From positions 96,001 through 160,000 of the IMG/VR virus record IMGVR_UViG_3300034053_000029: DNA of 64,000 bases; one strand, given 5' to 3'. The DNA is from a virus (Duplodnaviria; Caudoviricetes). The number at the start of each line of letters is the position of its first letter. The stretch's first letter is position 1. Both the position numbers and the translations under genes were made by a program. The notes beneath the pieces are model-generated. The model saw nothing but the letters and a program-made list of their open reading frames with translations. It ran no database searches and was not told where the DNA came from. Shown here in pieces: positions 14,876 through 64,000 of the stretch.

Positions 14876-14903
14876 CTTAATATAGTCAAAATTGGAGATA
14901 ATC

Positions 14904-15878
14904 ATGGACAGAACACCATACACATATTTAGTAGGTTGGTCAAATTTAAATAAATGGTATTACGGCAGAAGGACTGCGAAAGGGTGTAGTCCATCCGATT
15001 TATGGGTAAAATATTTCACAAGTTCAAAAGAAGTTATTAAATTTAGAGAATTAAATGGCGAACCTGATGTAATAGAGATAAGAAAAGTATTTTCAAATGC
15101 AGATTCATGTAAAAAGTGGGAATCTAAAGTTTTACGAAGAATAGACGCTCAACATAATGAATCATTCTTGAATAAAAAGAACGGCGATGAAAATTGGGAC
15201 ACTACTGGAAGAACCGATTTGGGAAAATATGAAAGAACGGAAGAGATCAGACTTTCTATGAGTAAATTTAGACTTGGTAAGGCGAACGCATTTAATAGTA
15301 TAACAGGAGAATTTATAGGATTAATAAGCACATCAGACCCAAGATGGGAAACCGGAGAAATATATGGAAATACCAAGAATATGAGACACTCAGAAACATC
15401 AAAACAAAAAATGTCTAATCATAGACTTGGTGTGAAAATGCCAAATGGATTTGGGGATAAAATATCAAATGCTTTGTCGGGGAAACCAAAAACGGAAGAA
15501 CACAAAAATAAAATGAAAGAATCTAGATTGAGACTGATTGAATCTGGATGGTCATATTCTCACACAGAAGACACGAAAGAAAAATTAAGAAAGCCAAATA
15601 ATAAAAACAAAGGACTTGCTGCCGCCAAAGACGCAAAAACTGGAGAATTATTAGGCAAAATTAAAATTGATGATCCAAGATGGGAAACCGGAGAGATTGT
15701 AGGGGTATTGAAAGGAATACCATCTACAAATAGTTCTTCATTCAAAAAGAACTCAGCATCAGCAAAAACTAACACCGGAATCCCACTTGGAAATGTTTCT
15801 TTAGATGATCCAAGATGGGAAACCGGAGAGATTGTAGGAATACGAAAAGTTATTCAGTCAACATCTGTTTCTGAGTAA
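14904..15878 (+). CDS. GIY-YIG (Seg-like) homing endonuclease with NUMOD3 and three DPRWETGE repeats
   Basis: PYTYLVGW...YYG.R..KYFTSS...E...LNK; HSETSKQKMS/HTEDTKEKL; GGAG RBS before ATG 14904. Confidence 0.85.
   Translation: MDRTPYTYLVGWSNLNKWYYGRRTAKGCSPSDLWVKYFTSSKEVIKFRELNGEPDVIEIRKVFSNADSCKKWESKVLRRIDAQHNESFLNKKNGDENWDTTGRTDLGKYERTEEIRLSMSKFRLGKANAFNSITGEFIGLISTSDPRWETGEIYGNTKNMRHSETSKQKMSNHRLGVKMPNGFGDKISNALSGKPKTEEHKNKMKESRLRLIESGWSYSHTEDTKEKLRKPNNKNKGLAAAKDAKTGELLGKIKIDDPRWETGEIVGVLKGIPSTNSSSFKKNSASAKTNTGIPLGNVSLDDPRWETGEIVGIRKVIQSTSVSE
15336..15838 (+). repeat. Three in-frame DPRWETGE-encoding repeats
   Basis: Identical 35-mers at 15669-15703 and 15804-15838; related copy at 15336-15358. 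Confidence 0.85.
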
Positions 15879-24658: not shown

Positions 24659-25713
24659 TCAAGGGTACTCATAGCCTCTAGGTATAGGGATTTCATCATA
24701 GATTTTAATTTAGGTTTGTCTGCGTCAATGTTCGCCTGATCAATATATGACTCAACCAATGAGAGGGAATCCTCAGTAGCTATGTCATCGTCATCCACAT
24801 AAATGTCACAAAACTCTTCTACTATCTTAAAATCTGCTGCACCACAATTATATAACAGGTCAACCAACAAATCAAACTGGTATGGGTCGGTTTTCTTAAC
24901 AACTACCAACTTGACATATTTTCCTTCTAAGCCAGAAGTATCAAATGTCTTCCAGTATGAAGTGCCTTGGTTTTCGTCATTCCACTCAATTTTATGAAAC
25001 AATGAATACTCATTTCGAATAAATCGTTTAGAATGAGAAACAGTGTCTAGAATGAGAAACCCTTTTTTATCGTCGTAGTCTGCCCATGTAAACTCGAAAG
25101 GACTTCCGGTGTAGTAAATGTTGTCGGAATGTGACCTATGATGATAGTGCCCACTATACACCATTCTAAACGATTTGAATATGTCTTTACTCATTCCTTC
25201 GGTTGCTGTATGACCAACGTACATGTCAAATCCGACAAGTTCAAGATGCCCAAAACAAATTGAATCTTTGCTCGACTTAATGAACTCGGAAACATCAGCT
25301 TCATTATCTTGACATATCCAAGGAATGAATGAGAAAGAATTTTCTCCCAAAATGCTTGTTTTGGGAGTGTCATATATTACGATATTGTCATAATGACTTA
25401 GGAATAAGTCAATGGTGTTTGCTTTCAACGTATGCTTAAACGGACAATCGTGGTTTCCTACCAAAACGTGCATTTTGATTCCACTAGCAAGAAGTGGGTC
25501 AAAGAACTTCTCTTTCCATACGTCCAGAGTTTTATGGTTGGTGTATTGTCTCCTATCGAACAAATCACCAAGACAAACAAAGTCGGTTATGTTATGGTTC
25601 AACAGATATGGGATAAATTGGTCGTTGAGGAATTTCAACTGATAATTCATTAAATGAATCGAATCGTTCCTGCCCCCAACGTGAAAATCACCGATTACTC
25701 CCACTTTAGACAT
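24655..25713 (-). CDS. gp47: Recombination nuclease subunit (gp47, SbcD/Mre11)
   Basis: GDFH, LGDLFD, GNHD, GHLE, SGHYH. Confidence 0.97.
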   Translation of the reverse strand: MSKVGVIGDFHVGGRNDSIHLMNYQLKFLNDQFIPYLLNHNITDFVCLGDLFDRRQYTNHKTLDVWKEKFFDPLLASGIKMHVLVGNHDCPFKHTLKANTIDLFLSHYDNIVIYDTPKTSILGENSFSFIPWICQDNEADVSEFIKSSKDSICFGHLELVGFDMYVGHTATEGMSKDIFKSFRMVYSGHYHHRSHSDNIYYTGSPFEFTWADYDDKKGFLILDTVSHSKRFIRNEYSLFHKIEWNDENQGTSYWKTFDTSGLEGKYVKLVVVKKTDPYQFDLLVDLLYNCGAADFKIVEEFCDIYVDDDDIATEDSLSLVESYIDQANIDADKPKLKSMMKSLYLEAMSTLE

Positions 25714-25724
25714 ATATTAATTCC

Positions 25725-25732
25725 TATAAATA
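25725..25732 (+). promoter_or_regulatory. Late promoter TATAAATA
   Basis: Exact T4 late consensus. Confidence 0.8.
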
Positions 25733-25737
25733 ATAAT

Positions 25738-25772
25738 GCTAGTCACGATGTAATCAGCATCTACTAGCTCTA
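25738..25772 (+). ncRNA. Conserved hairpin leader, copy 1
   Basis: GCTAGT-CAC-GATG-loop-CATC-T-ACTAGC-TCTA; same architecture as 44016-44049. Confidence 0.6.
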
Positions 25773-25805
25773 ATCATTCTACCATCAACTCTAAGGAGAG
25801 TCAAT

Positions 25806-26468
25806 ATGACCAGCACTAATATTTATTACGTTTACGCATACATTAGAGCAAAAGATAGTCCAATCGCAAAAGCAGGAACCCCATACTACATTGGAAAAGG
25901 TTGTGGCAAACGAGCATACGTTAAACACAAAAACGGAACCACAACTCCATCAGATAAATCTAAGATTGTTATTTTAGAATCAAATTTGACTGAAATTGGG
26001 GCATTGGCATTAGAACGTCGGATGATTGCTTGGTGGGGAAAGAAAAATGATAAAACAGGAATTCTACACAATAAATCAGATGGTGGAGAAGGTACATCTG
26101 GATTCTCTTACAAGAGATCGGACGAAACAAAAAATAAATTATCAGAAATAAAAAGAACAGATAAGTATATAAAAATAGCAATAAATAATCTTCCTAAAAA
26201 TATCTGTGGTGAGAATAATGGAATGTATGGTAAAAATCATACAGAAAAATCTAGAAATCAGATGAAGTTAACAAGATCGGTAAGAAACAAAGCTAATGAT
26301 TTGAAATCGTATTCCAGAGTCAAATCATTAGAAGAAATTAATAAAATTAAAGCGTCAAGAAAACCATTCAACCGAGTTACACGAATCTTTGATAGAAAAG
26401 AAATGGATATAGGAAATTTTGCTAAATGGGTTAAATTAATTACTCAAAGAACTTCTCCAGACCTATAG
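25806..26468 (+). CDS. GIY-YIG homing endonuclease (NUMOD3-type)
   Basis: YYVYAY...PYYIGKG...R, LERRMI, LHNKSDGGEG. Confidence 0.9.
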   Translation: MTSTNIYYVYAYIRAKDSPIAKAGTPYYIGKGCGKRAYVKHKNGTTTPSDKSKIVILESNLTEIGALALERRMIAWWGKKNDKTGILHNKSDGGEGTSGFSYKRSDETKNKLSEIKRTDKYIKIAINNLPKNICGENNGMYGKNHTEKSRNQMKLTRSVRNKANDLKSYSRVKSLEEINKIKASRKPFNRVTRIFDRKEMDIGNFAKWVKLITQRTSPDL

Positions 26469-34311: not shown

Positions 34312-35553
34312 TTACTTTGAAAACTTCAGAGGACCACCAAGGGCTTGAACATATTTCGAGATATTATCTTCAACTTCTTCTGTGATAACTTCTGTATAGG
34401 TAGTTGGCTTCAAATCTTGTGTTGCTGCCTCTTTACCATCCTTGAAATATGATTCCTTGATTGTCTTTACTTTTTGCTCAAATTCCTCATCGGAACTATA
34501 CTCTAGACCTTCGCATAAAGATACAAACTTATCCTTTTGCATCAACGTCATACCCTTAGCAACTGATTCGACAACTGCTTGTTTCTTTAGGTTGTCATTC
34601 TCTTCGCATAAACGATCATGATCGCCGTTAATAACTAGAATAGCTTCCTCTAGTTCAGCAATACGGTTAGCTTGTTCTTCAACGACATCTAGCTTGTCTT
34701 CTGGCACTTCAACGTAGTTCTCTTTGAAAAGAGTCTTCAATCCATCAATAAAATTAGTAACCATCTCTACTTTGATACCACTTTCTAATGCAATTTGATT
34801 ATCACCAACCCACTGCTCAACTGCGTAGTTGAGGAATCCATCAATATTTTCGATAAGATCATTTTGCACTTCTTCAACTGCTTCACTGAGGGATGCCTCA
34901 ATGCGTGTTGTTTCTTCTTCTAATTTAAGTTGATACTGCTCTTCAAGTTCAACCATCTTTTGCTCAACGATTTGATTGACAGCAGATTCAAAAATTGTTG
35001 CGGCCTTTGACTGGAACTCTTCTGAAAGTTCTTCGCCTTGGAAGAGAGCATTCATTGACTCACCAACGGTAATTTTGAAAGGCTTAGTTGGGAGAGACTG
35101 ATCATCAACGGCATTTACTTTATTGTCATCATTCTGTGATGCAGACTGACCCTTAACGCCTTCGCCGTCTTTGCGTGACTGACCAACTGTTAGCTTAGAA
35201 TTCTTTGGGTCTTTGCCGCCTGATCCTGATGGTGGTGCAGCCAATTTAGTTCCCATTGACTTATCTCCTTGACCTTGACCTTTTTTCAACATTTCGTTTG
35301 ATGCCTCTTCATTGACTTTCTTTGGATTCTGCTTTGAGAAGTCAGTAGTTTCGTCATCATCTTCTTTGTCCTCATCCTTGTCACCATCTTGATCATCTGT
35401 ATCTACATCTTGATCTTTGGTGTCATCGGATTTATCATCTTCCTTGTCTTCATCTTTATCGTCTTCGTCAGTAGTAATGACATTACCATTCTTTGTGGTA
35501 ATGGTTTCCTTACCTTCCATCAACTGTCTAATTCTTTCTTCTAACGTACTCAT
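34312..35553 (-). CDS. gp22: Prohead core scaffold (gp22) with long acidic N-terminal extension
   Basis: LSEEFQSKAATIFESAV, FLNYAVEQW, F..GLK.LF.ENY. Confidence 0.93.
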   Translation of the reverse strand: MSTLEERIRQLMEGKETITTKNGNVITTDEDDKDEDKEDDKSDDTKDQDVDTDDQDGDKDEDKEDDDETTDFSKQNPKKVNEEASNEMLKKGQGQGDKSMGTKLAAPPSGSGGKDPKNSKLTVGQSRKDGEGVKGQSASQNDDNKVNAVDDQSLPTKPFKITVGESMNALFQGEELSEEFQSKAATIFESAVNQIVEQKMVELEEQYQLKLEEETTRIEASLSEAVEEVQNDLIENIDGFLNYAVEQWVGDNQIALESGIKVEMVTNFIDGLKTLFKENYVEVPEDKLDVVEEQANRIAELEEAILVINGDHDRLCEENDNLKKQAVVESVAKGMTLMQKDKFVSLCEGLEYSSDEEFEQKVKTIKESYFKDGKEAATQDLKPTTYTEVITEEVEDNISKYVQALGGPLKFSK

Positions 35554-36125
35554 ATTGACTTTCTCCTATTTTGTGCCAATCTTCTTGCTTCACTCCAAGG
35601 TTTTCCTTTATGTGCCCAAGGAACTCCGCTTTCTGACCTTCTTCTAACACCAATTTTACAATTTTCTTTTTGGGATGCTGCTTGTTCTGAATTCATATAT
35701 TTTGTTATCTTTTCTACAAATTCTTTAGGTTTCGGTTTATCTTTATATTGCAGAGACTTTTTAATCTTTTGTTCTTCTGACCATACTCGACCAACTTGCC
35801 CTTTCTTTCCCCAAAAAGTATCTTTTGCAGTATCTGGATCAACAAAATTACCATTCATATTTAATTCATCATCAATATGTTCACGAATCATAAGTTGTTC
35901 ATACCAAAACACTACATCCTCATCACCATATTCCATCAATATTTTGTACTCATAATTATTTATATTAGATTTAATATCTTCTTTCAATTTTCCAGAAGTA
36001 AAATACTTAATAAACAAATCTTCTTCTGCAGACAATTTCAATCCAACATTAGCTTTTCTACTTCCAATATAATACTCATCAGTTACTTTGTTTTTGACCA
36101 TATACACATATGGTAAAATTTCCAT
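35550..36125 (-). CDS. GIY-YIG (Seg-like) homing endonuclease
   Basis: PYVYMVKNK..EYYIGSR...KYFTS. Confidence 0.85.
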   Translation of the reverse strand: MEILPYVYMVKNKVTDEYYIGSRKANVGLKLSAEEDLFIKYFTSGKLKEDIKSNINNYEYKILMEYGDEDVVFWYEQLMIREHIDDELNMNGNFVDPDTAKDTFWGKKGQVGRVWSEEQKIKKSLQYKDKPKPKEFVEKITKYMNSEQAASQKENCKIGVRRRSESGVPWAHKGKPWSEARRLAQNRRKSI

Positions 36126-43132: not shown

Positions 43133-43157
43133 TATTTATCTAATTCTATTATTCACA
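43133..43157 (-). promoter_or_regulatory. Late promoter GATAAATA with upstream TGTGAA
   Basis: TGTGAA-N12-ATAAATA upstream of gp18. Confidence 0.65.
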
Positions 43158-43985
43158 AGATTTTATTCTGCCAAGAATCCACCCGTTTGGTTGACTTCCT
43201 TCGTCAAAGAACTTTGCAATAATTCCATTATTGTATATTTTCTTATTTTTGGTGTGGTTATTTGGCCTATCTAATTTTCCTTTTATCCAATCTAGATTTG
43301 GATTTTTTGTAAAATATTCACGAACTCCATCATTAAACCATTCTTTACCTTTTGATCCGTTTGGTTTCCCTCTCTTCGCAAGTGATATGTTTATTTTATG
43401 TTCTTCTGAAAATTTTCTTCCGGACAATGCCAAACTATTTTTTCGGTTATGCTCTTCTGATTTTGGTATTCCTCTTGTCGATAGTGATTGCTTCTGTTTA
43501 GATTCTTCGGTTCGTATGTTTCCTTTTGATTTTCTTCCACCAACTTTGTATTTCTCTTCAGTGAGTTTCAATCCTTTATTCCAAGCTGATTTTTTGTTTT
43601 TATGTTTTGTTTGTTTCATCTTACTGATAGATTCTTTTGACTTTGGTACTCCCTTCAAGGGCGACACTTCTGGACACATCCATAATATTTCTTTGTTTTT
43701 GTGTACCTTTTTATTTAATTTGAGTGGGTTGTTCCAATTTTCAAGAATCATGTCCTGTTCAAATAAATATGCGTCCTTGTAGTCAAAAAATTCTGCAAGT
43801 ATGTCAATGTGAAAGTCGTAGAACATTGGTTTCACATATTTAGATGAAGTGAAATACTTAATTCCTAAATCTTCTGAAGAAGGAACAATGTTTGCCCATC
43901 TTGATCCAAAATAGAATTGTCCTGTTTCTTTATGTGTGAGCTTATAAACATAAGGCAATACTTTTGTTGATTCATAAATAATCAT
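43149..43985 (-). CDS. GIY-YIG (Seg-like) homing endonuclease with NUMOD3 repeats
   Basis: PYVYKL...FYFGSR...KYFTSS; AGGAG RBS before ATG 43985. Confidence 0.88.
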   Translation of the reverse strand: MIIYESTKVLPYVYKLTHKETGQFYFGSRWANIVPSSEDLGIKYFTSSKYVKPMFYDFHIDILAEFFDYKDAYLFEQDMILENWNNPLKLNKKVHKNKEILWMCPEVSPLKGVPKSKESISKMKQTKHKNKKSAWNKGLKLTEEKYKVGGRKSKGNIRTEESKQKQSLSTRGIPKSEEHNRKNSLALSGRKFSEEHKINISLAKRGKPNGSKGKEWFNDGVREYFTKNPNLDWIKGKLDRPNNHTKNKKIYNNGIIAKFFDEGSQPNGWILGRIKSCE

Positions 43986-44015
43986 GCTGGTTCTCCTTGT
44001 CAATGTGTTTAGAAC

Positions 44016-44049
44016 TAGAGTGGGTAGAGATTGCAGTCTCGTGACCCAC
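44016..44049 (-). ncRNA. Conserved hairpin leader, copy 2
   Basis: GTGGGT-CAC-GAGA-loop-TCTC-T-ACCCAC-TCTA. Confidence 0.6.
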
Positions 44050-44052
44050 AAT

Positions 44053-44060
44053 TATTTATC
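44053..44060 (-). promoter_or_regulatory. Late promoter GATAAATA
   Basis: Immediately upstream of the hairpin leader; overlaps the gp17 stop. Confidence 0.7.
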
Positions 44061-45696
44061 ATAATAGAAGTTCCATCGCTTCTCTAGAATTTACCATATT
44101 TGGATTTTCTTCATATTCGTCCGATGCGTTGTGTATGATTAATGCTGGTGCTAGTTCGTCTTCTAGTTCTTTTTCTAAATTTGAATAAAGTTTATTTCTC
44201 ATAGAAACGTCATACAAATCCACGAACCAATTTTGAGTTACGCACCAGGCATGCAACCAAAGGCAACATACCATGTCATCATTAAACCCTTCATCTGCTT
44301 CCCACGATCCAGAATCATTTTGAACAAAAGTGCTTAGTTGCTGTATGCAAGTTAGATCATCAACTATTAATTGTTTTTTCTCTGCAATGTCTTTTAAATT
44401 GGCACAACCAATTCTTTTAGTCTTCTTAGTGGTACGAATTCCTGGGTAAGGGTCTGCCCCTTTCTTTCCAAGTTGATCACCAGATTTTGTCCAATATAAT
44501 CCTTCATACTCATATGTATAGTACATTTCTTCAGCAACTTGAGCGCCAACGTCATTAATCTCAATCAAGACATATGCCTCATTATATTGCTTTGCTATTT
44601 GATAACAAAGACCGGCATATTTAAGTGGAGCAATATCATTATTGTTATATGATGCAACTATTCGATGTGGATAATCTGAAATGTCAAATATTAAGAAAGC
44701 AGATGCGTCAAGGTGCCTTCCTCTAGATACATCAACCGTCATGGTATAGCTATGACCAGTTTTTGGGTGTTGATATATCTTCAACCCTTTGTACTGATCT
44801 GTAAATTCTTTAATCGGTTGAATTGGTGAAAGTGATGCCATGGTTGCTGCTGTTAATAACTGACGAGATGATCCTTGAAATTCACAATCCAACTCTTGGG
44901 CAGTTTTCAACTCACCCAATACTGACTTTTGTTCTTCATACCACTCTTGATTTCTTTCTGGATGTTCCCACCACATACTCTTTACTGGTGTGAATCCATT
45001 TATATTATTCTCTGCCTCATTCCATATTTTATGAAAATGGTTAAATCCATTTGGGGTTGATGTGATAATCAACTTCGATTCTTTTGATGCAGATAGGGTA
45101 GGGAATACTGATGTGAAGAATTCTTCTGCTTGAGTATTCTGAACGAATGCAAACTCGTCAAGTAACATCAATTGAACAGATCGACCACGAATCGCATTCT
45201 TTGAAGTTGCGGCACCAAAACACTTTGAACCATTTTCAAATTCTACGGAACCACGATTCCATCGTTTGACGCCTTGTTGCAACCACTTAGGTAAGCATTC
45301 AATGGCAAATCGAATTCGATCCATAATTTCAAATGCTTGGGCTTGCTTGTTTGCTAGAATTGCTGACGTTTTTTCGTCATTAAACAAAAGGAACCATATG
45401 ATATATGCTGCTGCTGTAGTCGTTTTACCTAACTGTCGACTTGCCATACCACAAACCTTACGGTTCTCATGATATGCTCTAACCATTTTCTTCTGGTAAT
45501 CATACAACTTCATCAAGACTGAACCACGATCAGGGTGGATTACTCTGACGTAGTTTTCGATAAAATAAATCGGGTCTTTCATACATCTAGAGATTTCAAT
45601 CATCATCTCTGGTGTGTATGATATTTGGGCGTTACATGGTCTAAGATTTGGGTTGTTCTTAAACTGTATCTCGACTAATTGTTCTAAGTCACTCAT
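44059..45696 (-). CDS. gp17: Terminase large subunit (gp17)
   Basis: SRQLGKTT, LDEFAF, STPNG.NHF, VDVSRG, DDMV. Confidence 0.98.
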   Translation of the reverse strand: MSDLEQLVEIQFKNNPNLRPCNAQISYTPEMMIEISRCMKDPIYFIENYVRVIHPDRGSVLMKLYDYQKKMVRAYHENRKVCGMASRQLGKTTTAAAYIIWFLLFNDEKTSAILANKQAQAFEIMDRIRFAIECLPKWLQQGVKRWNRGSVEFENGSKCFGAATSKNAIRGRSVQLMLLDEFAFVQNTQAEEFFTSVFPTLSASKESKLIITSTPNGFNHFHKIWNEAENNINGFTPVKSMWWEHPERNQEWYEEQKSVLGELKTAQELDCEFQGSSRQLLTAATMASLSPIQPIKEFTDQYKGLKIYQHPKTGHSYTMTVDVSRGRHLDASAFLIFDISDYPHRIVASYNNNDIAPLKYAGLCYQIAKQYNEAYVLIEINDVGAQVAEEMYYTYEYEGLYWTKSGDQLGKKGADPYPGIRTTKKTKRIGCANLKDIAEKKQLIVDDLTCIQQLSTFVQNDSGSWEADEGFNDDMVCCLWLHAWCVTQNWFVDLYDVSMRNKLYSNLEKELEDELAPALIIHNASDEYEENPNMVNSREAMELLL

Positions 45697-48322: not shown

Positions 48323-49252
48323 TTATCCTACTAGAAAACCCAGCGGTGCTCCATTACCTGCTGCTTCGTCCTCTAGTGCTTTCAATTCAGTCATTGCTTG
48401 TTCTAATATGTATTTTCCATCGTACTGTACTCCACCCGGCAGGGACATTCCAGAATATTTCGACAGCACCTGACCCCATGTTCTTTTCATTTTTGCCGTG
48501 GTGTATTTCTTTAACCAAGGATCGTTATACACCTCAGAATACACCTCTGGATCAAGACCAATGTAGCATTCAAACACATACCATGTTCCCACGTTCAAAT
48601 CCCAACTTGAATCATAGTATAAGTTATTCATCCGACGATTAAAACGATACGTCTTCTCTTTTCTCAATATGAAATCTAGATGACCAAGATAATTGAACGT
48701 CGAATACAAATAATTTGCCTGACCAGATGTGATGTTTCTAATCTCGTTAGCCATAATTTGATACTGGACATTAAACAAAATATCTGGATGATTCAATAAT
48801 CCGTTTGTATTCAATACTCTAGTGACAGAAAACACTTCATCTGGAAGCTCGATATAACCTTTATCCACGGTTCCTTTTGAAACGGTACTTATGACAGATG
48901 ATTGAGTTCCATTTGTCAAGGTCTGACCTGATGCACATATCGTACCAGTCGATGATTGAGTTGCTGATATGATATTTCCATCAACGGAAACTATGGTAGC
49001 AGAATATCCTTGTGAAGTCGTAACAGTTTGGTTTTCGACAAATCCTGTAGCATCGGCAACCGTAATTTTGGTTGGTGCAATTTGAAATTTGATGTAATTT
49101 CTCTCAATGCCCTCGTAATGATAGTCATTGAAATACTGAACGGCATCCTCTACTGCATCCTCAATTTGGTCTGGTGTCAATTCAATATTGACGATGCCGC
49201 CACCAAGTTGACGAAGTGCGTAACTTGCTAACTCCTGCCTACTTGAAATCAT
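48323..49252 (-). CDS. gp13: Neck protein (gp13)
   Basis: YALRQLG..IVNIE...QIED, YNDPWLKKY, WGQVLSKY, LPGGV. Confidence 0.96.
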   Translation of the reverse strand: MISSRQELASYALRQLGGGIVNIELTPDQIEDAVEDAVQYFNDYHYEGIERNYIKFQIAPTKITVADATGFVENQTVTTSQGYSATIVSVDGNIISATQSSTGTICASGQTLTNGTQSSVISTVSKGTVDKGYIELPDEVFSVTRVLNTNGLLNHPDILFNVQYQIMANEIRNITSGQANYLYSTFNYLGHLDFILRKEKTYRFNRRMNNLYYDSSWDLNVGTWYVFECYIGLDPEVYSEVYNDPWLKKYTTAKMKRTWGQVLSKYSGMSLPGGVQYDGKYILEQAMTELKALEDEAAGNGAPLGFLVG

Positions 49253-49950
49253 AGTCGATCCTTAATATGTTTGGTAAAATTTCCTATATCAAAAACTCTT
49301 TTACAACATATACAAGATACCTCTCTTTTGACCTCAGATATATGTTTAATGAAATTTCCATAATCAAATGTTCTATTACAACAAACACATGAACATTTGA
49401 TTATATGTCTGTTCATTGCTTTTTCTTTAATTTTGCCTTTTGTTTCATCAGAAACCAAATGTCCCCTGTTAATTTTACTAATTTTTCTCCCTAACGATTT
49501 GATTCTTTCATCAGTTTCTTTTGTTTTTCCTTTTGTCCAAGGCGTAATTCCTTTTAAACTAATACTCAATTTTTTCCTAGTTTCATCAGAAACAACTACA
49601 GTTTTTCCTTTATGAATTTTAGATAACTTTTGACGACCTTCTTCTGTTATATAGAATATTTTTTTATTGTTATGAGTACAAGACCTATTTAATAGTAGTG
49701 GATTTCCTAAATTGTTGAATATTAGTTCTTGTTCATATTTAATTGCATCAATTGGATCATCAAATTCTTTCAAAACTGTCCACTCATAATCATCTACATT
49801 ATTTTTTATTATCTTACTAGATGAAAAATATTTTATACCTAAATCGAATTCAGCCTTACATTTATTTGCTCTACGATATCCATAATAAAATTGATCAGTA
49901 AGTCTATTTACTGCAATATATACATATGGTTTCACATCGTCTTGCGTCAT
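49249..49950 (-). CDS. GIY-YIG homing endonuclease with NUMOD3 and tandem CxCC...GNF.KH fingers
   Basis: PYVYI...FYYGYR...KYFSSS, LLLNR. Confidence 0.85.
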   Translation of the reverse strand: MTQDDVKPYVYIAVNRLTDQFYYGYRRANKCKAEFDLGIKYFSSSKIIKNNVDDYEWTVLKEFDDPIDAIKYEQELIFNNLGNPLLLNRSCTHNNKKIFYITEEGRQKLSKIHKGKTVVVSDETRKKLSISLKGITPWTKGKTKETDERIKSLGRKISKINRGHLVSDETKGKIKEKAMNRHIIKCSCVCCNRTFDYGNFIKHISEVKREVSCICCKRVFDIGNFTKHIKDRL

Positions 49951-52975: not shown

Positions 52976-54457
52976 TCAGATTTCCTCACCCCAACCAAGA
53001 ACCACTTCACTTGATCCGGCAGTGGAATCGTTGGTCACAATAAGGTAATCACCACGAACCAAATTCAATTCTAAATGACTATACGACAACTCTATAGATA
53101 CTCTAGCACCTGCTTCCACAGTAATCGCACGAATAAACTCAAGATTTGCCACGGTTACTGCCGTTGCTCTTACTGCACTCACATTCATGTCAGTTGAATC
53201 GGATTGAACGAATGAATGTTTACCACCATATCCTGCAACTAAAGTTTCACCTGTAATATCAGCAGCACTTCGAGTACGCCATAATTTAAACGTGCATTTC
53301 TTAGTGTTATGAACTGATAATGTTCTCAAATGAATAGTGCGAGTATTAACTAACGTACCAATTAAAAGAGGATTATGAACAACTAAAACTGGTTTATCTG
53401 CACCAGTAGTCGCTACTGCTTGTGAATAGGCTGATCCCCATTGTTCTGGCGTCTCTTTACCATTCTCAGATGTTATATCTACGCAACCAATTATAAGAGA
53501 GCAATTGGCAACTGCTGCATTTGCTGTGGTTGCTTTGAATGCTATAGGTAGAGCAGGATTACTCATACTTAATGCAGTAAGAGTCCCCAACAAAGACATA
53601 GTATGAACATGAATGTTGTTGATGAAGAACTTATAATTTCCCATTCCACGCCATTGATATTGAATATCGTAAGTGTTACCCGCTTCAACATTGAATCCTG
53701 GAACTCCTGCAGTACTAATTAGTTGCTCTGCTACTTCAACGGTTAGCGATCTGCGTACTGCGTATAACAAACCATCTGCTTTTAGGCGAAAGAATATACC
53801 CGCATCAATGTTTTGAACACCCCACTCTCTAACACATCCTGTTGCAGTCTTGCTTGGACAAATCAGTGCAGTTGAAAACAAATGACCACGATTGGGTTGA
53901 TATGGTGGGCACACTCTAGATTCAAGTAATAAATTTGTTTTTCCTGTTGATGTAGTAAGAACTGCTGCTCCACCTGTAGATACGATGTTAGTAGAGGTGT
54001 AAACTTGTACGCCACCTTCGTATGTAAACCACATTTTTGTTGGTATGTCAAAAGTGAACATCCCATGAAATAGCGAGAACGGAAGAGACATTTTCTGAAC
54101 ACCCCAAGCATCTTCCGTAAGATCACCAGAACCTAGAGTGCCACTAATAGGAACAGGTGTTGCTCTCAATTGAGCATCGGTCAATGGTCCTGAGACTGGT
54201 TGTGTCGCTTGATAAAACGATCCAGAAACAGGAACTGCTGCTGCTCTCAATTGTGCATCTGTCAATGGTTGCGATAACCCAGTATTGGCAGTAACTGTGC
54301 CGGAAACAGGCAATGGATTGGTAGCACTAATGTCACCATCATTCACTCCATCATCACCATGAATCAGTTTTACTCTCTGGTATTTTGCACCGGCAATCTC
54401 ATCTGCTGCAATGACTGCTCCACCAATACCAGGATTTAGGGTTACATTATCTGCCAT
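52976..54457 (-). CDS. Virion structural protein (beta-sandwich/lectin-like) with PLTDAQLRA repeats
   Basis: 493 aa; two PLTDAQLRA..VP.SG repeats. Confidence 0.75.
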   Translation of the reverse strand: MADNVTLNPGIGGAVIAADEIAGAKYQRVKLIHGDDGVNDGDISATNPLPVSGTVTANTGLSQPLTDAQLRAAAVPVSGSFYQATQPVSGPLTDAQLRATPVPISGTLGSGDLTEDAWGVQKMSLPFSLFHGMFTFDIPTKMWFTYEGGVQVYTSTNIVSTGGAAVLTTSTGKTNLLLESRVCPPYQPNRGHLFSTALICPSKTATGCVREWGVQNIDAGIFFRLKADGLLYAVRRSLTVEVAEQLISTAGVPGFNVEAGNTYDIQYQWRGMGNYKFFINNIHVHTMSLLGTLTALSMSNPALPIAFKATTANAAVANCSLIIGCVDITSENGKETPEQWGSAYSQAVATTGADKPVLVVHNPLLIGTLVNTRTIHLRTLSVHNTKKCTFKLWRTRSAADITGETLVAGYGGKHSFVQSDSTDMNVSAVRATAVTVANLEFIRAITVEAGARVSIELSYSHLELNLVRGDYLIVTNDSTAGSSEVVLGWGEEI

Positions 54458-54467
54458 TTTTCACTTT

Positions 54468-55019
54468 CTATTTTGCCCTAGCTACGACGTATGTATTTTT
54501 CAAATGATTTTTAACTGTATGTTTATCTTTCTTTTTTGGAACTTCATCACCATACTCATTGTCTGGTTTCTCAATTTGCTTTCTACCTTTGTGATATGTT
54601 AATTGAGTATCTGACATTTCACCAACTCTATCCATAACAGTTTTTCCACCTTCAGAATACTCATCTGAACCAATTGCTTTGATGCCTTGCTTATGAATGA
54701 GGTGATGAATGAGGTGATGCATCTTCATTGATCCATCAGACTTTTCATGTTTAGACATGGCATCTATACTTAGATGACCTTCATGTTCCTCGCCCCATAT
54801 TGAAAGATCATTCACTTTTGTCTTCTTATTCTTTGCCCAATATACGGTTTGGTCATGAATATTGGTTCCTCTATGGATAGTATGAGTATCGGTCTCACCA
54901 ATCTTCTTATGATCAAGATTCCAGTTTTCATCTTTTTTAGAGACATTCCAATCCATATTTTTTGGGATGTTTTTGTTTATGAATGCCATTTCTGAAATAT
55001 ATTCTTTAAAGGTTATCAT
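54468..55019 (-). CDS. CTS-bearing His-rich GNAT-fold-like protein
   Basis: MITFKEYISE leader; SDEYSEGGKTVMDRV. Confidence 0.7.
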   Translation of the reverse strand: MITFKEYISEMAFINKNIPKNMDWNVSKKDENWNLDHKKIGETDTHTIHRGTNIHDQTVYWAKNKKTKVNDLSIWGEEHEGHLSIDAMSKHEKSDGSMKMHHLIHHLIHKQGIKAIGSDEYSEGGKTVMDRVGEMSDTQLTYHKGRKQIEKPDNEYGDEVPKKKDKHTVKNHLKNTYVVARAK

Positions 55020-55021
55020 GA

Positions 55022-57442
55022 TTACACCCTTTGTACCGTTGTTTGTTCTGTATTAGTGGTTATTGATTGTGTTATGTCACCTGCGAATCTACCTGTCTTG
55101 GTTACAATGAGTGGTTTCGCTGGATCAAGTCCCATCATATTGTAGAGTTCAAGTAACATCGTCGCCTGAGTACCAGTCAATCCAGGGTTGCTACTAAGTG
55201 TCATAATATGAGCAAGTTCTGGAGTCAATTCGGTTCTAACTGCATCTGCCAATGCACCATAATCAACACCACCAGATGAAGCGGTATTGAGTTTATTTCC
55301 AAATGTTCCTACATCGTTGTAATCGGCGGCAACTGAATTCCAAATGTCATCAGGAATCGTATCACCACGACTACTTACCATAGCAAATTGTGCAGCAGGA
55401 TCAACAAACACTTCATTTTCTGGTGCAGAAGTTCCTGTTGGGAATGTCTTATTATCTCTGATGAAGTTATCAAACAGAATCATCGTTCTTTGAGTGTTTG
55501 GTCCTATGTTGATACCATAATCGCTATTATTCTGAATGCGTGATGCTGATACCACATTCAATCGTGTCGAGTTTGAACTTGTGCCAGTAAATTTGATACC
55601 GCATCCACGGTTGTAGTAGATGTTGCAATTATCGAAGCGAACTTCTCTTGGTGATCCTTCTCCTGCTATTGGTGCATCCGTAAATCGGACACCATCCGAT
55701 CCAAATTTCTCAATCTCACAACCGAATACTTTATGATAATCGCCACCCTTGAAATGCACACCAACACCGGTTCCTATTGCCGAACCACCACCGGTATCTG
55801 GTCCTACGATATACATATTCTCAAGTCGAGTAAATTTCGCATTGACCACGATACCATCTTCTGATCCGTTTGCCGAAGTTTTTAGGTAGATACCATTCAA
55901 TGAGCAATTGTTTGCTGTGATATTGATAACAGGATCAGCAGTAATGGTACTTGGTTGAATCATAATACCACGACCTGGTGCACGAATATGCACATCTTCT
56001 TTATTCATTACAATTCGTTCATCGAGTGGAGTTCCAACAGCACCTGGTGATAACAAGAAGATAACGTCACCACGACCAGACACCGCTTTACCGATAGCAG
56101 CAGTAATCGTTTTCAATGGAGAAGCAGGTGAATTTCCTGGTGCCAAATCCGTACCATTTATGTGATCTACATACCAACGTGATCCGAATCCTTGGTGTGA
56201 TTGACGTAGCGATTCCACATCAAGTTTTGCTTGTTCTGCAACTGCTGCTGCGAAACCTGACGCATCAACTTCCGTACCTAATGAATAATTGACAAGCGTT
56301 CCGAATCCTGTAACCGTGATCTTCCCTTTGGTGCAAGTCGAATCAACGGTAACAGTTCCACCATTCAAGTGAATCCATACTTGACCAGATTGAGTAGCAT
56401 GATTTTGATTGATGAATTTGATACGTCCATGAAATCCATCAAACGTCATATTCAGGCGAGCGCCGTTACGATCAATAATTGCCGTACCTTCGTCCGAATA
56501 GCAATCTTTGAAATATGACGCATGACCATTAGATACTGCTGATGTTTGACGAATCGTATATGTTAGTGTGGATGGAGTAAGCAAACCGCATCGTTCATAG
56601 AAACAATGTGCATTATCTAACCCATCAATAATACAATCGTGATAAATCGACTCACCACCTTGATATCCAGTGATTCTACAATGTGTCCAATGGGAATTTG
56701 TGGTGACACAACCAGAAGTCAAAGTGACTAAGGTTCTTGTAACATTCAATGTGGCACCGTCACCCTCAAATCTCAGCGCAGTAAGATTACCACCGGATGA
56801 GTCGGTCGCTGTTGATGGAACCGTGAGATTTCCACGAATGTAAAAATTATCGAAACCTCTTGTTGTAGCAATGGTTTTCGCATCTGCGATATTGTTTACT
56901 GGAACTTTGAATGTTCCGATTGGGTATGCCGTACCTGATGTTGCAACCGTGGAAACATTGCCTTGGTCAATGGTAATTTCACCATTGAATGCTGCTTGTT
57001 CGATTTCAGCAATTTGTGCCAATGAAGAATCGACAAGGGATGATACTTGCAATTCGATGGTGACGCTGTAATTACCAACAGCAGGTAGGAACGGAGAAGA
57101 ACCGGAAGGGTCTGTATAAAGGTTTCCATTGACGGTTAGTCGATGATCGCCAGAATATGGACGAATACGCCAACCATTAGTTAAGAAGTACGTCGAACCA
57201 AGAGTTTTTGTGTCACTAATTGCGTCACCGCCCACTGCTCGCATGGCAGGTAAGTACTTTACGTTATCACTAACTAGTACCCATTCTTTCCAAGCAGAAT
57301 ATATGTCTTGAACTTCAACTAAAGTGACACCAACAGAGATTTCTATGACCTTATCATTGCCATAGAAAGTAAAATCTCTAATAGTATCGAATTCGGATAT
57401 GTAACCTGCAGCAACATATCCAGTTGAGACATAATTACTCAT
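55022..57442 (-). CDS. Tailspike-like protein with right-handed beta-helix
   Basis: GDVIFL..PG, repeated GI/GV.F..N beta-helix coils. Confidence 0.75.
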   Translation of the reverse strand: MSNYVSTGYVAAGYISEFDTIRDFTFYGNDKVIEISVGVTLVEVQDIYSAWKEWVLVSDNVKYLPAMRAVGGDAISDTKTLGSTYFLTNGWRIRPYSGDHRLTVNGNLYTDPSGSSPFLPAVGNYSVTIELQVSSLVDSSLAQIAEIEQAAFNGEITIDQGNVSTVATSGTAYPIGTFKVPVNNIADAKTIATTRGFDNFYIRGNLTVPSTATDSSGGNLTALRFEGDGATLNVTRTLVTLTSGCVTTNSHWTHCRITGYQGGESIYHDCIIDGLDNAHCFYERCGLLTPSTLTYTIRQTSAVSNGHASYFKDCYSDEGTAIIDRNGARLNMTFDGFHGRIKFINQNHATQSGQVWIHLNGGTVTVDSTCTKGKITVTGFGTLVNYSLGTEVDASGFAAAVAEQAKLDVESLRQSHQGFGSRWYVDHINGTDLAPGNSPASPLKTITAAIGKAVSGRGDVIFLLSPGAVGTPLDERIVMNKEDVHIRAPGRGIMIQPSTITADPVINITANNCSLNGIYLKTSANGSEDGIVVNAKFTRLENMYIVGPDTGGGSAIGTGVGVHFKGGDYHKVFGCEIEKFGSDGVRFTDAPIAGEGSPREVRFDNCNIYYNRGCGIKFTGTSSNSTRLNVVSASRIQNNSDYGINIGPNTQRTMILFDNFIRDNKTFPTGTSAPENEVFVDPAAQFAMVSSRGDTIPDDIWNSVAADYNDVGTFGNKLNTASSGGVDYGALADAVRTELTPELAHIMTLSSNPGLTGTQATMLLELYNMMGLDPAKPLIVTKTGRFAGDITQSITTNTEQTTVQRV

Positions 57443-58541: not shown

Positions 58542-59363
58542 TTATTCTGTTTTTTTGATAACTCTTCCTTTTCTCCAACCTTCGGGAATTTCATCGTTTT
58601 TTGGTACAGATTTTGAATCAACTCCATTTGTTATCCAATGCTTTCCTGAGTTTGTACCAAATCTTTTTATTTTCTCTTCTGGTGTCATTTTTGCTGCATT
58701 CTCTATAAAAGTTTGTCTACTTCTTTCTCTTGCTTCTGGTGTTGTCATTGCGTCTATTCGATACTTAGTATATTCTGGATCAGCAGAAAATTCCTTTTGC
58801 TTCTCTGATCTTTGTTTTCTCCACGACTCTCTGCTAGTTATTTCTTTGTTTATCTCTGTTTGTTTTCTTCTATTTTCTTCTATTGAAAAGTATTCATTTC
58901 GTCTATTAGACTGTGCACTTCTATTCTCTTCATCGTCCCAATATTCTTGTCTGTGTTTTGTTAGTCTACTTCTAATTGCGTCATCGTCCCACATTTCTTT
59001 TGATTGTTGCGACATATGAGAAGACAAGTTTTTTCTACACATCTCGAATAAGCGACTATTACCAAATACTATCCTATTATTTTTTGTATTGGTCAGTTTC
59101 ATCATAGACAATAAGGATAGAAGCATTTTCTTTTCTGATGAAATATCATTATTTTTGAAAATTTTATATAACAAAAGGTGTGCGATATAATGTTCTTTAT
59201 GTGTCAAATTTACTACAAATTTATTTTTACCATAAATCGACTGTGGGAAGACATGGTGTGCTTCTGTTTCCCCTTGTACTTTAGTATTAAATTTCCTAGA
59301 TTCAATCAAATTAACATACCATTTTTTATACTTATTGTTAGAGAACGATTCATAACTAAACAT
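58542..59363 (-). CDS. HNH (Mob-like) homing endonuclease
   Basis: KYKKWYVNLIE...EAHHVFPQS...NLTHKEHYIAHLLL; TATAAATA at 59395-59402. Confidence 0.88.
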   Translation of the reverse strand: MFSYESFSNNKYKKWYVNLIESRKFNTKVQGETEAHHVFPQSIYGKNKFVVNLTHKEHYIAHLLLYKIFKNNDISSEKKMLLSLLSMMKLTNTKNNRIVFGNSRLFEMCRKNLSSHMSQQSKEMWDDDAIRSRLTKHRQEYWDDEENRSAQSNRRNEYFSIEENRRKQTEINKEITSRESWRKQRSEKQKEFSADPEYTKYRIDAMTTPEARERSRQTFIENAAKMTPEEKIKRFGTNSGKHWITNGVDSKSVPKNDEIPEGWRKGRVIKKTE

Positions 59364-61130: not shown

Positions 61131-64000
61131 TTATGCTGGGTTAGAGTACTGACGATCAAATGTTTGTTGAACTGGAATGGTCAACGTAGTACCATCCAAC
61201 ACCTGATCTTCTAAACGAATTGGTAAATAGTTTAGATGATGAATGACGATGATAATATCAGTATTTTCGTAGTAATCATAATTCAATGTGAATGTCGTAC
61301 CTGAACTTTCCGTACCACCCAATTCAAATCCATCAGAAATACGAAACACTCTAACTTCAGAATCTGTTTGCAATCCTGTTAGAACAAGTGATCCGGATGA
61401 ATATGCGTAGTTATATGCAGTATCTGTATCGGTCTCAGTGAATAATCTAAACGAATTCAAACGACTCGTAGGTTGTGGTGCAAACACGAAACTAGTGTTT
61501 ACTGCCGTAATGGTTGAATGAATACCACCGATAGGACATGAGCCTGATGCAGTCGATAATGTCGCATTCGTCCCAGCAAGGGCATTATTAAAAGAAGTGG
61601 CGATTGCAATTTGTGTGCTACCTATTACTTCAGATACATAATTAGTCGATCCTGATGCAATACCACCAAATGTCGTTCCGATAGCAACCACGCCCGCACC
61701 AACATAGAAGTTAGCATTAGATGTCAATGTGATAAGATTATTCGTTCCGTTTATGTTTTGTGTTCCAGTAGCAGAATGTGATTTGCTTACCAGCCAAGTC
61801 GAACCAGAGCCCGATCCTGCTATGTTGCTAACGATGTAAGTTCCTGTAAGGACGTTTGTTCCAGTTAGCATCATACCTGCTGCTACCACGCCAGTTGCTT
61901 GAGTCCCCACGGTAAATGTCGTACCAGTAATGTTAGAACCAGTCGTGGTTGCAGAAGCATTCGTTGTATTTGTCATCGTGGTATTCATCGTACCAGAATA
62001 AATGGTATTTGATGTCAACCATTCACCCGTGATATTCGAAACCACTAGCGATCCTGCAACAGTAGTAACCGCTTCATCATCGACCACCACTGCTGTTGCT
62101 GTTGGACTAGTAAGCGCATTTTGTACCACCCACCCAGGCATAAACTGCCCAACTTGAGCAGTATATTTTAGTGTTGGTCTCGCAGTAATTCTGAACTTTG
62201 GTCTAACTCCAGTTGATGGTGATATTCCAGTTTCGTCGGCAAGATTATTCATTCCGATTACGCCGTTCAACTGTTTCCACGTTCCACCGTAACCTGATCC
62301 TTTATCGAGTTGATATTCGATCAATACACCTAACGAAGTTACCAAATTCAACCCAAGGTCAGTCGAATAGATATGTGGTAATCTTCTTGTGAATCCAGTC
62401 AACCCCTTGACAAAATGAGGCCATTCGATAACTACTTGGTCTCCTGCTGTAGTCAACGCTAAGTTTCCGTCATTAGTGAAGAATGGAGTTCCTGAAGTAA
62501 TCGTGTATGGTTTCGATGCCTTTGAAGAAGCGATCAATCTAATATCCAAACATCCTCTTGGTTGTGATCCATAAGTATACTCACGAAACATACCATCAAA
62601 CACAGACTGACTTGTAATTTGTGATCCAGAATATGTTGGTTCTGAACTCAAATTCCATGTTGTCCCATTCTGTAACGGATACGGATCACCACCAAAAACA
62701 CCACGAATTTGTGTATCCAATGATTGAACATACCAAGGAACTCTTGCGACTCGATTCGATCTCACATTTTGAACTTTGATACCACTTGATGCGTTTGAAG
62801 TACTTGAACTATCCATATATGCTGTAGAAACATATGGTCTTACATTAATCACATCAATATTATGTAAGTACACTGAATATCCTGGACCAGCATAATAAAC
62901 ATATCCCAATGATCCATTGATTGTGTGCGTCGAATCTTTTACACTTACATTTGTTGCACCAGAAATCGGAAATAACAAAAATCCATGATGAATTTGTTTT
63001 GTATTGATTGGTTGGTAATTCGATACATTTATATTCGCTGCAGAAGTTATAGCAGAAATAACTGGTTCGACACCAGGAGATTGGTTACTGAATAGTAAAT
63101 TCTGAACCGTTGGTGTAAATGATGGTGTAGTTCCAATATGTAAATCTGCCCAAAATTGCCATGGTGAAGTGGACAACGTAGTTTCGATACCTGCTCCGCC
63201 GTCAATGTTCCATCCATATAATCCACCAGATGAATTCAAAAATTGTTGTGGAAATTGATACACAGGGAACGTGGTGGTGGCGTTTGCAATTGGTGGTGGT
63301 ACTGCACTTGTTCTTGTTACAGTAACGTGTGCCACATTTATTGATGACCCAATCGCAGGAAGTGTTATGACAGCATTGGTTGTCGATGCGGTTGTCGTAA
63401 ATGATACTGAGAATCTCTGCCATTGATTTGTTAGGTTCTTCGTTTCTGAAGTCGTACCCAAATCCATCTTCATGGTGATGTATGTTCGATTATCAGGTAA
63501 GTTTGCCCTTGCCCAAAGAGCAAAAGTGTGAACTGTACCAACTCCAGTCTGAATCGTTTGCGTTAGAGTTCCGTTTGCTGACGTAGCAATTAATTGAGTA
63601 GTAGTTGTGGCTGGGTTTGCTGAGTTGATACCGACAAAATTATTAAGTGGGGAAAACTGACCGGTTGCGTTGGTTGCAGTTATACCAGATGCAGTCCAAG
63701 GTGCAGTTGCTAAAGTTTCATTCTGTAATGCAAGATTCAAATAACACAAAGGTGCTTGTGGAATACAAGTGATCTCAGGCAACTCAAATCCTGCGACGAA
63801 TCTTAGTGTCTGCGTGGTGAATGTATTTGTGTTAGCAATTGAAACCGTCATGGAAGTATTACTATCAACCGTAACCACTTTACAATTCATACCGACGTTT
63901 GAACCATACACAAACATACCAGGAGCTGGACTAAACCCAACGTATGTTCTTGAATTACCACGATTTTTTACATCGGCAGTCAAATTGGCAGATAAGCGAA
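61131..64000 (-). CDS. Large tail fibre/virion structural protein, 5'-truncated by the window edge
   Basis: Frame stays open to position 63998; T/S/G/N-rich beta repeats; C-terminal LTGLQTDSEVRVF...DRQYSNP. Confidence 0.8.
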   Translation of the reverse strand, partial: RLSANLTADVKNRGNSRTYVGFSPAPGMFVYGSNVGMNCKVVTVDSNTSMTVSIANTNTFTTQTLRFVAGFELPEITCIPQAPLCYLNLALQNETLATAPWTASGITATNATGQFSPLNNFVGINSANPATTTTQLIATSANGTLTQTIQTGVGTVHTFALWARANLPDNRTYITMKMDLGTTSETKNLTNQWQRFSVSFTTTASTTNAVITLPAIGSSINVAHVTVTRTSAVPPPIANATTTFPVYQFPQQFLNSSGGLYGWNIDGGAGIETTLSTSPWQFWADLHIGTTPSFTPTVQNLLFSNQSPGVEPVISAITSAANINVSNYQPINTKQIHHGFLLFPISGATNVSVKDSTHTINGSLGYVYYAGPGYSVYLHNIDVINVRPYVSTAYMDSSSTSNASSGIKVQNVRSNRVARVPWYVQSLDTQIRGVFGGDPYPLQNGTTWNLSSEPTYSGSQITSQSVFDGMFREYTYGSQPRGCLDIRLIASSKASKPYTITSGTPFFTNDGNLALTTAGDQVVIEWPHFVKGLTGFTRRLPHIYSTDLGLNLVTSLGVLIEYQLDKGSGYGGTWKQLNGVIGMNNLADETGISPSTGVRPKFRITARPTLKYTAQVGQFMPGWVVQNALTSPTATAVVVDDEAVTTVAGSLVVSNITGEWLTSNTIYSGTMNTTMTNTTNASATTTGSNITGTTFTVGTQATGVVAAGMMLTGTNVLTGTYIVSNIAGSGSGSTWLVSKSHSATGTQNINGTNNLITLTSNANFYVGAGVVAIGTTFGGIASGSTNYVSEVIGSTQIAIATSFNNALAGTNATLSTASGSCPIGGIHSTITAVNTSFVFAPQPTSRLNSFRLFTETDTDTAYNYAYSSGSLVLTGLQTDSEVRVFRISDGFELGGTESSGTTFTLNYDYYENTDIIIVIHHLNYLPIRLEDQVLDGTTLTIPVQQTFDRQYSNPA

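Follow-up and report, generated by a model that had tools for sequence, protein, structure and literature searches.

This analysis concerns a hairpin-containing leader that precedes two separately located homing-endonuclease genes in a 64,000-nt stretch of viral DNA, referred to here as the window, which comprises bases 96001–160000 of a complete virus record of 210,171 bp with terminal repeats and 38.4% G+C (IMG/VR record IMGVR_UViG_3300034053_000029). The genome is that of a T4-like phage, and the matches to PHROGs profiles in it include a gp55-type late sigma factor, SbcC/SbcD-like nucleases (of the T4 gp46/gp47 type), a helicase, the terminase large subunit and the tail sheath. The terminase is only 42–45% identical to cyanophage, Caulobacter phage and Methylophilales phage terminases, and blastn with the two loci as queries found nothing among 50,697 phage records. 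No RNA sequencing run was listed for the window, and the DNA runs listed had small shares only, so that no habitat is assigned. Positions are those of the window unless the genome is named.

Copy 1 of the leader lies on the plus strand and begins with the late-promoter box TATAAATA (25725–25732), which is followed, after the 5-nt spacer ATAAT, by the hairpin GCTAGT-CAC-GATG-(TAATCAG)-CATC-T-ACTAGC (25738–25768), with 6 bp, a 3x1 internal loop (CAC/T), 4 bp and a 7-nt loop. This hairpin is called P1 when read on the gene (sense) strand and P1' when read on the antisense strand. It is followed by TCTA (25769–25772), by the Shine-Dalgarno sequence (SD) AAGGAGA (25793–25799) and, 37 nt after the stem, by the ATG of a homing-endonuclease open reading frame (ORF; 25806–26468, 220 aa), which contains NUMOD3, matches the PHROG annotation 'homing endonuclease' and runs against its two neighbours, the late sigma factor gene and the SbcD-like (T4 gp47-type) gene, both of which are on the minus strand. 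A second helix, P2 or, on the antisense strand, P2' (25770–25813), is identified from the fold of the antisense strand and from the covariation of P2 across the family; in it CTAATCAT (25770–25777) pairs with ATGACCAG (25806–25813), surrounding the SD and including the start codon (25806–25808) in the 3' arm. An inverted late-promoter box, AATAAATA, is found on the minus strand at 25820–25827, 5 nt from GCTG, the complement of the CAGC at 25811–25814; it occupies codons 5–8 of this long-form gene. In the short-form copies the box lies in codons 2–5, and it is missing from the account given in the earlier note on this DNA. The predicted antisense RNA of copy 1 would span 25722–25814 on the minus strand, where the covariance model R2 matches genome positions 121725–121814 (minus strand, E 1.6e-14). 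It would start at the G opposite C25814 and would end either after P1' and a U-rich tail or, by read-through, in the SbcD-like gene. The P2 region of copy 1 also contains, on the minus strand, a sigma-70-like promoter (25776–25804; TTGACT, 17 nt, TAGAAT, with TG), from which transcription would begin at the foot of P1' and run into the SbcD-like gene; TAGAATG (CATTCTA on the sense strand) is common to the long-form copies, and the promoter spacing fits copy 1 alone.

Copy 2 lies on the minus strand. Its box GATAAATA (44060–44053) overlaps the stop codon of the terminase large-subunit gene and is followed by the spacer ATT, the hairpin GTGGGT-CAC-GAGA-(CTGCAA)-TCTC-T-ACCCAC (44049–44020), TCTA (44019–44016) and the SD AAGGAGA (43998–43992), which is partly within the 3' arm of P2. 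The P2 helix (43987–44018) is formed by CTAGTTCT (44018–44011) and AGAACCAG (43994–43987), and in the fold of the plus-strand RNA P2' is an 8-bp helix including a G-U pair. The inverted box CATAAATA (43973–43980, plus strand) lies in codons 2–5, 5 nt before GCTG (43986–43989). The ORF (43149–43985, minus strand, start ATG at 43985) encodes a GIY-YIG-like protein of 278 aa, matching PHROG 314, and is co-directional between the terminase large-subunit and tail-sheath genes. The predicted antisense RNA (43986–44062, plus strand) would consist of a G, P2' with an anti-SD loop, an A, P1' and the tail AAUUAUUUAU; its z-score on folding is -2.2, and this segment is the best R2 match in the genome (E 2.8e-18).

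The geometry of the two hairpins is as described in the earlier note, including their coordinates and the late promoter 5 nt upstream of copy 1. When folded as single hairpins, they have energies of -12.2 and -12.9 kcal/mol (z -4.1 and -3.7), and 5 of the 10 stem pairs differ on both sides between the copies with all pairs remaining Watson-Crick, in agreement with the compensatory changes noted there. P1 does not cover the SD, as also stated; the distance from the end of P1 to the SD is 24 nt in copy 1 and 21 nt in copy 2. The two encoded proteins are without detectable likeness (E about 1), and the shared leader is therefore not a by-product of a recent gene duplication.

A portable cassette heading homing-endonuclease genes

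The hairpin forms one stem, P1, of a portable cassette that measures about 100 bp and heads free-standing homing-endonuclease genes. Copies were sought with a structure scan and with two covariance models (R1 and R2), by which seven copies and nothing else credible are found in the genome: at genome positions 12923, 50820, 59838, 69849, 85994 and 121738 (copy 1) on the plus strand and at 140049 (copy 2) on the minus strand. A weak R1 match at genome positions 105864–105893 (E 1.3) was taken as chance. Each of the seven copies lies 45–70 nt upstream of an ORF; six of these ORFs match PHROGs homing-endonuclease families of two unrelated kinds (phrog_314 and phrog_655/HNH), and the seventh is GIY-YIG-like by its motif and by phmmer. 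Pfam is weak on these nucleases, recognizing only NUMOD3, and PHROGs was used in its place. All 70 cells of the P1 stems in the seven copies are Watson-Crick pairs, with double changes at 7 of the 10 pair positions.

The cassette is also present well beyond this genome. A scan of IMG/VR with the exact stem gave 27 loci, of which 22 are true matches with the same anatomy, and a stem-agnostic scan gave more than 119 stretches. The latter pattern fixes only the sense box, the loop residues, the closing pairs and YCTA, so that it is silent on the frequency of forms lacking these or the CAC that it demands; the stem interiors, P2, CAGC and TATTTAT lie outside the pattern, and tests on those parts are therefore unbiased. 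Of the 1220 stem cells in the 122 unique cassettes examined, 1193 hold Watson-Crick pairs, and the outer P1 stems are highly varied (GTAGGT, GTGGTT, GCCAGT, GTCCAT, GGTACT, GCGATT and GAGGGT, among others). Other large IMG/VR contigs carry two to three copies each. Two cultured phages are also carriers, both with CGC instead of CAC: Variovorax phage V45v66, with the cassette near 85994–86058 of PV558790, and Pseudoalteromonas phage vB_Psh_XG4, with the cassette near 56131–56205 of PP712099; in cyanophages S-SRM01, B23 and S-N03, which have related nucleases, R1 and R2 gave nothing credible and the cassette was not found. Further copies are thus present in the genome, in IMG/VR and in cultured phages, and the view of the earlier note, of a selected, covarying structure travelling with homing-endonuclease genes, is borne out. 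The link to GIY-YIG/NUMOD3 genes in particular is not exclusive: among the IMG/VR matches listed, the downstream ORFs are GIY-YIG-like in at least 73 cases and HNH-like in at least 14, with others including zinc-finger types, and all carry the same cassette.

On the gene strand the order of the parts is NATAAATA, 3–5 nt, P1, YCTA, P2, CAGC, 5–6 nt and TATTTAT. The sense box NATAAATA is found 3–6 nt upstream of P1 in 110 of the 122 unique cassettes, and P1 is marked by invariant closing pairs and the CAC/Y internal loop. P2 is a variable helix surrounding the SD and, in the long forms, also the AUG; its inner pairs covary over 72 arm types. In the earlier note TCTA is an invariant sequence trailing the hairpin. 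It is no free tail, since it pairs with the invariant CAG(C) and closes P2 around the SD: CAGC is present in each of the 95 cassettes that carry YCTA, and CAAC in the two that carry YTTA. The CAG(C) site is located just upstream of the ATG or, in the long forms, just after an upstream ATG, as in ATG TCC AGC A.

The last part, TATTTAT, is the reverse complement of the ATAAATA late-promoter box, so that the two boxes of the cassette face each other. TAT[T/A]TAT occurs 5–6 nt after CAGC in 91 of 116 cassettes, in 71 of them exactly as TATTTAT, and, in a mirror image of the sense promoter, the box is followed after about 5 nt by a G. The base preceding ATTTAT is T in 85 of 94 cases, while the codon concerned encodes 17 different residues, and the inverted box is therefore conserved at the nucleotide level. 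This conservation also holds for HNH genes, whose catalytic motifs do not include 'IY', and the long forms retain CCAGCA...ATTTAT as nucleotides despite the upstream shift of the ATG. The genome has 79 occurrences of NATAAATA, 47 of them within 90 nt upstream of a gene on the same strand, and TATAAATA is under-represented (19 seen, about 34 expected), both of which fit a use of the box as late promoter. Antisense occurrences of NATAAATA inside genes are rare: there are 12 in the genome, of which about seven are cassette boxes. At the level of sequence, the inverted box, which is NATAAATA or a form of it with one mismatch, thus has the features of a candidate opposite-strand promoter at the 5' end of the target gene.

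The P1 loop, which in about 70% of cases is CNNCAA on the sense strand, is observed in both orientations on the same inner stem (CGTCAA/TTGACG, CGGCAA/TTGCCG and CGCCAA/TTGGCG, in IMG/VR loci L043–L161 and in genome copies). Inversion of the loop seems to be tolerated, which may be expected if sense and antisense hairpins meet loop to loop, or if template switching takes place at a DNA hairpin.

The strand of the conserved fold

Transitions in a helix leave G-U pairs on one strand and A-C mismatches on the other, so that the two strands of the cassette can be compared. On the sense strand, pairs 1–4 of P2 show 48 A-C against 1 G-U (96 unique segments), and the outer stem of P1 shows 8 A-C against 1 G-U. 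In an alignment of 47 cassettes in the antisense orientation (A5; 748 cells, with window positions 43986–44062 of copy 2 as one row), 98.5% of the cells are paired and 77 are G-U, as compared with 88.8% paired and 4 G-U in the sense reading; one G-U pair is invariant in 47 of 47 rows, and 10 of the 16 antisense pairs show double changes. RNAalifold returns P2' and P1' from this alignment unprompted, whereas from the sense alignment (first MAFFT pass) it gave P1 alone. This is also in agreement with the minimum free energies (MFE), which average -19.7 kcal/mol for the antisense strand and -12.1 kcal/mol for the sense strand, the antisense value being the lower one in 47 of 49 cassettes; for copy 1 the values are -23.4 and -16.1 kcal/mol and for copy 2 they are -21.6 and -17.8 kcal/mol (antisense and sense leader, respectively). 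It follows from the G-U asymmetry that the selected fold is that of the antisense transcript, and not the fold on the gene strand that was proposed in the earlier note.

The predicted antisense RNA begins with the G of GCUG and continues with the 8-bp P2', one A, P1' and a tail with 5–9 U in 12 nt, and in 47 of 47 cassettes the P2' loop holds UCC or CUCC, an anti-Shine-Dalgarno sequence. The internal loop of P1', U-R-G / C-GUG-A, is invariant. In two genome copies the sense box is displaced, lying 16–19 nt away, and both keep a U run after P1', which appears as a run of 6–7 A beside P1 on the sense strand.

The asymmetry does not depend on the genomic setting. Six of the seven genome copies are inverted in minus-strand gene blocks and copy 2 is co-directional; in the wider sample the upstream neighbour is divergent for 61 cassettes and co-directional for 29. 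Antisense-specific G-U pairs outnumber A-C by 39 to 1 in the divergent class and by 13 to 0 in the co-directional class, and the inverted box is present in 41 of 61 and 19 of 29 cassettes, respectively. Since both features are equal in the two classes, they belong to the cassette, independent of the expression of a neighbouring gene.

Possible functions of the cassette

The favoured explanation, which we hold with moderate confidence, is that the two boxes are facing late promoters and that an antisense RNA of about 70–90 nt, with two hairpins and an anti-SD loop, limits translation of the nuclease. In T4 an 8-bp box suffices for a late promoter, and this rule is the basis here for the predicted promoter activity and RNA ends; the gp55-type late sigma factor of the phage also speaks for this explanation. 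Late in infection, the 70–90 bp between the boxes would be transcribed from both strands; the antisense transcript, beginning at the G of GCUG, would display the anti-Shine-Dalgarno sequence in the loop of P2'; and this RNA, either small or the head of a longer one, would pair with the leader of the nuclease mRNA, which itself would start with P1. Coverage of the SD would then keep translation of the selfish nuclease low, and collision of the two promoters may contribute to the repression.

Several observations weigh against this explanation. The RNA ends are all predicted from the T4 late-promoter rule. About two thirds of the cassettes have a divergent upstream gene, often starting 13–50 nt beyond P1; in copy 1 the SbcD-like gene starts at 25713, only 25 nt from P1, which leaves no space for a promoter of its own, and its SD abuts the sense box. 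Transcripts of the SbcD-like gene must cross P1', and P1' is therefore no tight terminator in copy 1, where the antisense RNA may be a long leader and not a small RNA. A simple terminator scan did not call P1', and the U-tail after P1' is no better in co-directional settings (6.0 versus 5.9 U). On the sense strand, too, P1 forms a nearly perfect hairpin, and in 31 of 49 MFE folds of a read-through sense RNA TATTTAT pairs with the promoter box, so that a T4-type mask may form. Finally, the antisense RNA may possibly protect the nuclease mRNA instead.

The closeness of the divergent genes also suggests a different use of the inverted box, namely late transcription of a flanking gene that the insertion has severed from its own promoters, with P2' and P1' as 5' stabilizing or insulating hairpins; the cost of insertion would be lowered, and loss of the endonuclease would become costly. 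This would account for the 61 of 90 cassettes with a divergent upstream gene, for the downstream neighbour being on the opposite strand too in 35 of the 39 divergent cassettes in which it could be called (the cassette gene being inverted within a gene block, as are six of the seven genome copies), and for the SD of the SbcD-like gene abutting the box; the T4 seg and mob genes likewise embed promoters for downstream genes (PMC2988022). However, in the one third of cassettes that are co-directional the antisense transcript would serve no gene, yet the box and the G-U pairs are equally kept there, and an outward promoter alone does not need a conserved two-hairpin fold with a terminator-like stem and a U-rich tail at its end. 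We consider this use unlikely. A reading from the sense strand alone, which extends the view of the earlier note, appears somewhat less probable still: P1 would be the 5'-terminal stem-loop of the late nuclease mRNA, with a stabilizing or factor-binding role, and P2 would partly hide the SD or AUG, and in read-through RNA the pairing of the box with TATTTAT just past the AUG would mask initiation as in T4 gene e and I-TevI (PMC3014915, PMC2988022). P1 does begin at or within 2 nt of the expected +1 (the spacer is 3–5 nt in 106 of 122 cassettes) and is almost wholly Watson-Crick on the sense strand, but P2 is not (the A-C excess and the 88.8% pairing given above), and RNAalifold sees P1 alone on this strand. 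The late promoter is upstream of both P1 and P2 arms, unlike in T4, and in most cassettes, where the upstream gene is divergent, there is no sense read-through on which a mask could act. No covariation is seen between the base that precedes the box and the one that follows TATTTAT, and an extended helix between the two boxes was rejected, the flanking bases showing no association.

It is very improbable that the cassette acts at the level of DNA, as bottom-strand hairpins in single-stranded DNA during replication or recombination, as a cruciform for recombination and exchange of nuclease cassettes, or as a protein operator. The occurrence of one cassette at unrelated ORFs implies exchange at or near it, and loops in both orientations on one inner stem (for example GATG-CGTCAA-CATC and GATG-TTGACG-CATC) are of a kind typical of template switching at DNA hairpins. 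The PeSL (promoter-early stem-loop) cassettes mediate shuffling in T4-type phages (PMC4122927). The G-T that is invariant in 47 of 47 rows and the many other G-T pairs are nevertheless natural in RNA and costly in DNA, and the exact spacing of the inverted promoter box speaks for a transcript. The freely varying stems make a sequence-specific duplex operator unlikely, and a single autoregulatory site is impossible for unrelated nuclease families; for these two reasons an autoregulatory operator of the endonuclease, one of the roles listed in the earlier note, is rejected as unlikely, and for a mobility signal, another of these, no evidence was found in this analysis. An RNase III site is also ruled out, as RNase III needs about 20 bp and the helices have 10 and 8 bp.

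Comparison with known systems and related loci

No match to Rfam 15 is found in the 64-kb window at the gathering thresholds, and around the cassettes there are only chance-level matches at E values up to 10; no description of the cassette was found in the literature. The cassette represents a real, widespread and apparently undescribed RNA structure family. To our knowledge, the control of free-standing homing endonucleases is known from a handful of T-even cases only, by hairpins masking the ribosome-binding site (RBS) and by autorepression.

The T-even late-promoter/RBS hairpins (I-TevI, I-TevII, I-TevIII, segB and gene e, and Aeh1 mobE; PMC3014915, PMC2988022) share with the cassette a late promoter of its own directly upstream (of the endonuclease genes), an RNA structure at the translation start and, for the cassette as a predicted outcome, a nuclease kept low or late. 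In T4, late transcripts are without the mask, their promoter being located within the 5' arm, whereas in the cassette the arms of P1 and P2 are all downstream of the promoter. The box itself, however, is complementary to TATTTAT after the AUG and pairs with it in the 31 of 49 read-through folds mentioned above, a pairing that no covariation supports. Nor are the SD and AUG paired in a hairpin stem as in T4: the SD is mostly in the P2 loop, P2 is mismatched on the sense strand, and the AUG is in the 3' arm of P2 in the long forms only. The cassette further differs from the T-even hairpins in the position of P1, away from the SD, in keeping its fold on the opposite strand, in carrying two late boxes, the second of them inverted, and in being shared by unrelated nuclease families.

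In IS10/Tn10, the RNA-OUT/RNA-IN pair is made from face-to-face promoters at the 5' end of the enzyme gene of a mobile element, and RNA-OUT, a short antisense RNA folded as an imperfect stem-loop, is complementary to the part of the mRNA where the ribosome binds; by this means a selfish element restrains itself. The cassette, as known here from its sequence, resembles this system in its predicted facing promoters, in a predicted structured antisense RNA directed against the RBS and in the self-restraint that would result, and the predicted antisense transcript likewise has a conserved, stable fold. It differs in having gp55-type late promoters and not sigma-70 promoters, two hairpins with the anti-SD in a loop, and a homing endonuclease in place of a transposase. 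CfrI of cyanophage S-PM2 is an antisense RNA that was reportedly studied by Millard et al. in 2010. It has been seen experimentally and overlaps the 5' end of the free-standing homing-endonuclease gene F-CphI (PMC2984593, PMC5931967, PMC12197685); as far as these accounts go, it is about 225 nt long, extends into psbA and is specific to the psbA locus, and they describe no portable cassette. A search of S-PM2 (NC_006820) with R2 gave no match, and CfrI is thus not of the same family. The PeSL cassettes resemble the present one as short repeated units of a promoter and a stem-loop, scattered between the variable genes of T4-type genomes, and are candidate points of modular exchange (PMC2839356, PMC4122927). 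When compared by description only, they have an early sigma-70 promoter and a terminator and are not tied to endonucleases, whereas the present cassette has late boxes, two covarying helices, a fixed place at the start of nuclease genes and an antisense fold.

A broader proposal, on which we are more tentative than on the antisense mechanism itself, is that the cassette is an exchangeable 'governor', carried by several unrelated endonuclease families throughout a large clade of uncultured T4-like phages, in which facing late promoters and a cognate two-hairpin antisense RNA act against the RBS of the gene they head. If true, selfish nucleases would carry a module by which they restrain themselves, in a way that compares with IS10 RNA-OUT or with type I antitoxins, and a built-in antisense RNA would be a new general layer of control, common to unrelated nuclease families and absent from Rfam. 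With stem sequences private to each copy, a dozen nucleases could exist side by side in a single genome, and the copies would provide a natural set of orthogonal sense/antisense pairs under an 8-bp promoter. The cassette would also be a signature by which mobile nuclease genes, and the points where they are inserted, could be located in phage genomes from metagenomes, and a model of selfish genes swapping regulatory heads.

Related sequences are found elsewhere in the genome. A variant cassette at genome positions 62330–62440 lies upstream of a zinc-finger nuclease-like ORF of 298 aa, with the order TATAAATA, a different hairpin (GCTAATAT-CGTCAC-ATATCAGC, with one A-C on the sense strand), an SD hairpin and then the start, ATG ACA ATA TTT ATT, which contains the inverted box; the ORF resembles cassette-linked ORFs on other contigs (L136, L150 and L052). 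At genome positions 65810–65900 there is a decayed remnant of the cassette (R1 E 0.05), with GCTAGT...CCACTCTAGA and then ...AATATTTATG; no long ORF follows, and an endonuclease gene has probably died at this locus. The inverted NATAAATA box also occurs, as ...AAT ATT TAT... and without an upstream P1, near the 5' ends of two more plus-strand ORFs, at genome positions 54284–54586 and 171152–171760, the latter being HNH/AP2-like and beginning with MLKDETNNIYGRLTV.

Five more ORFs resemble homing endonucleases (GIY-YIG-like or HNH-like by phmmer and PHROGs) and are without the cassette: in the window 14892–15878 on the plus strand and 35550–36125, 49249–49950 and 58542–59363 on the minus strand, and in the genome 20020–20910 on the plus strand. 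Several of them have a short leader with the ATAAATA box alone, and three of the five are co-directional with their neighbours, as compared with the six of seven cassette-bearing genes that are inverted. The minus strand carries 275 of the 324 ORFs called in the whole genome, and the region at about 66–72 kb of the genome is without long ORFs and may hold RNA genes.

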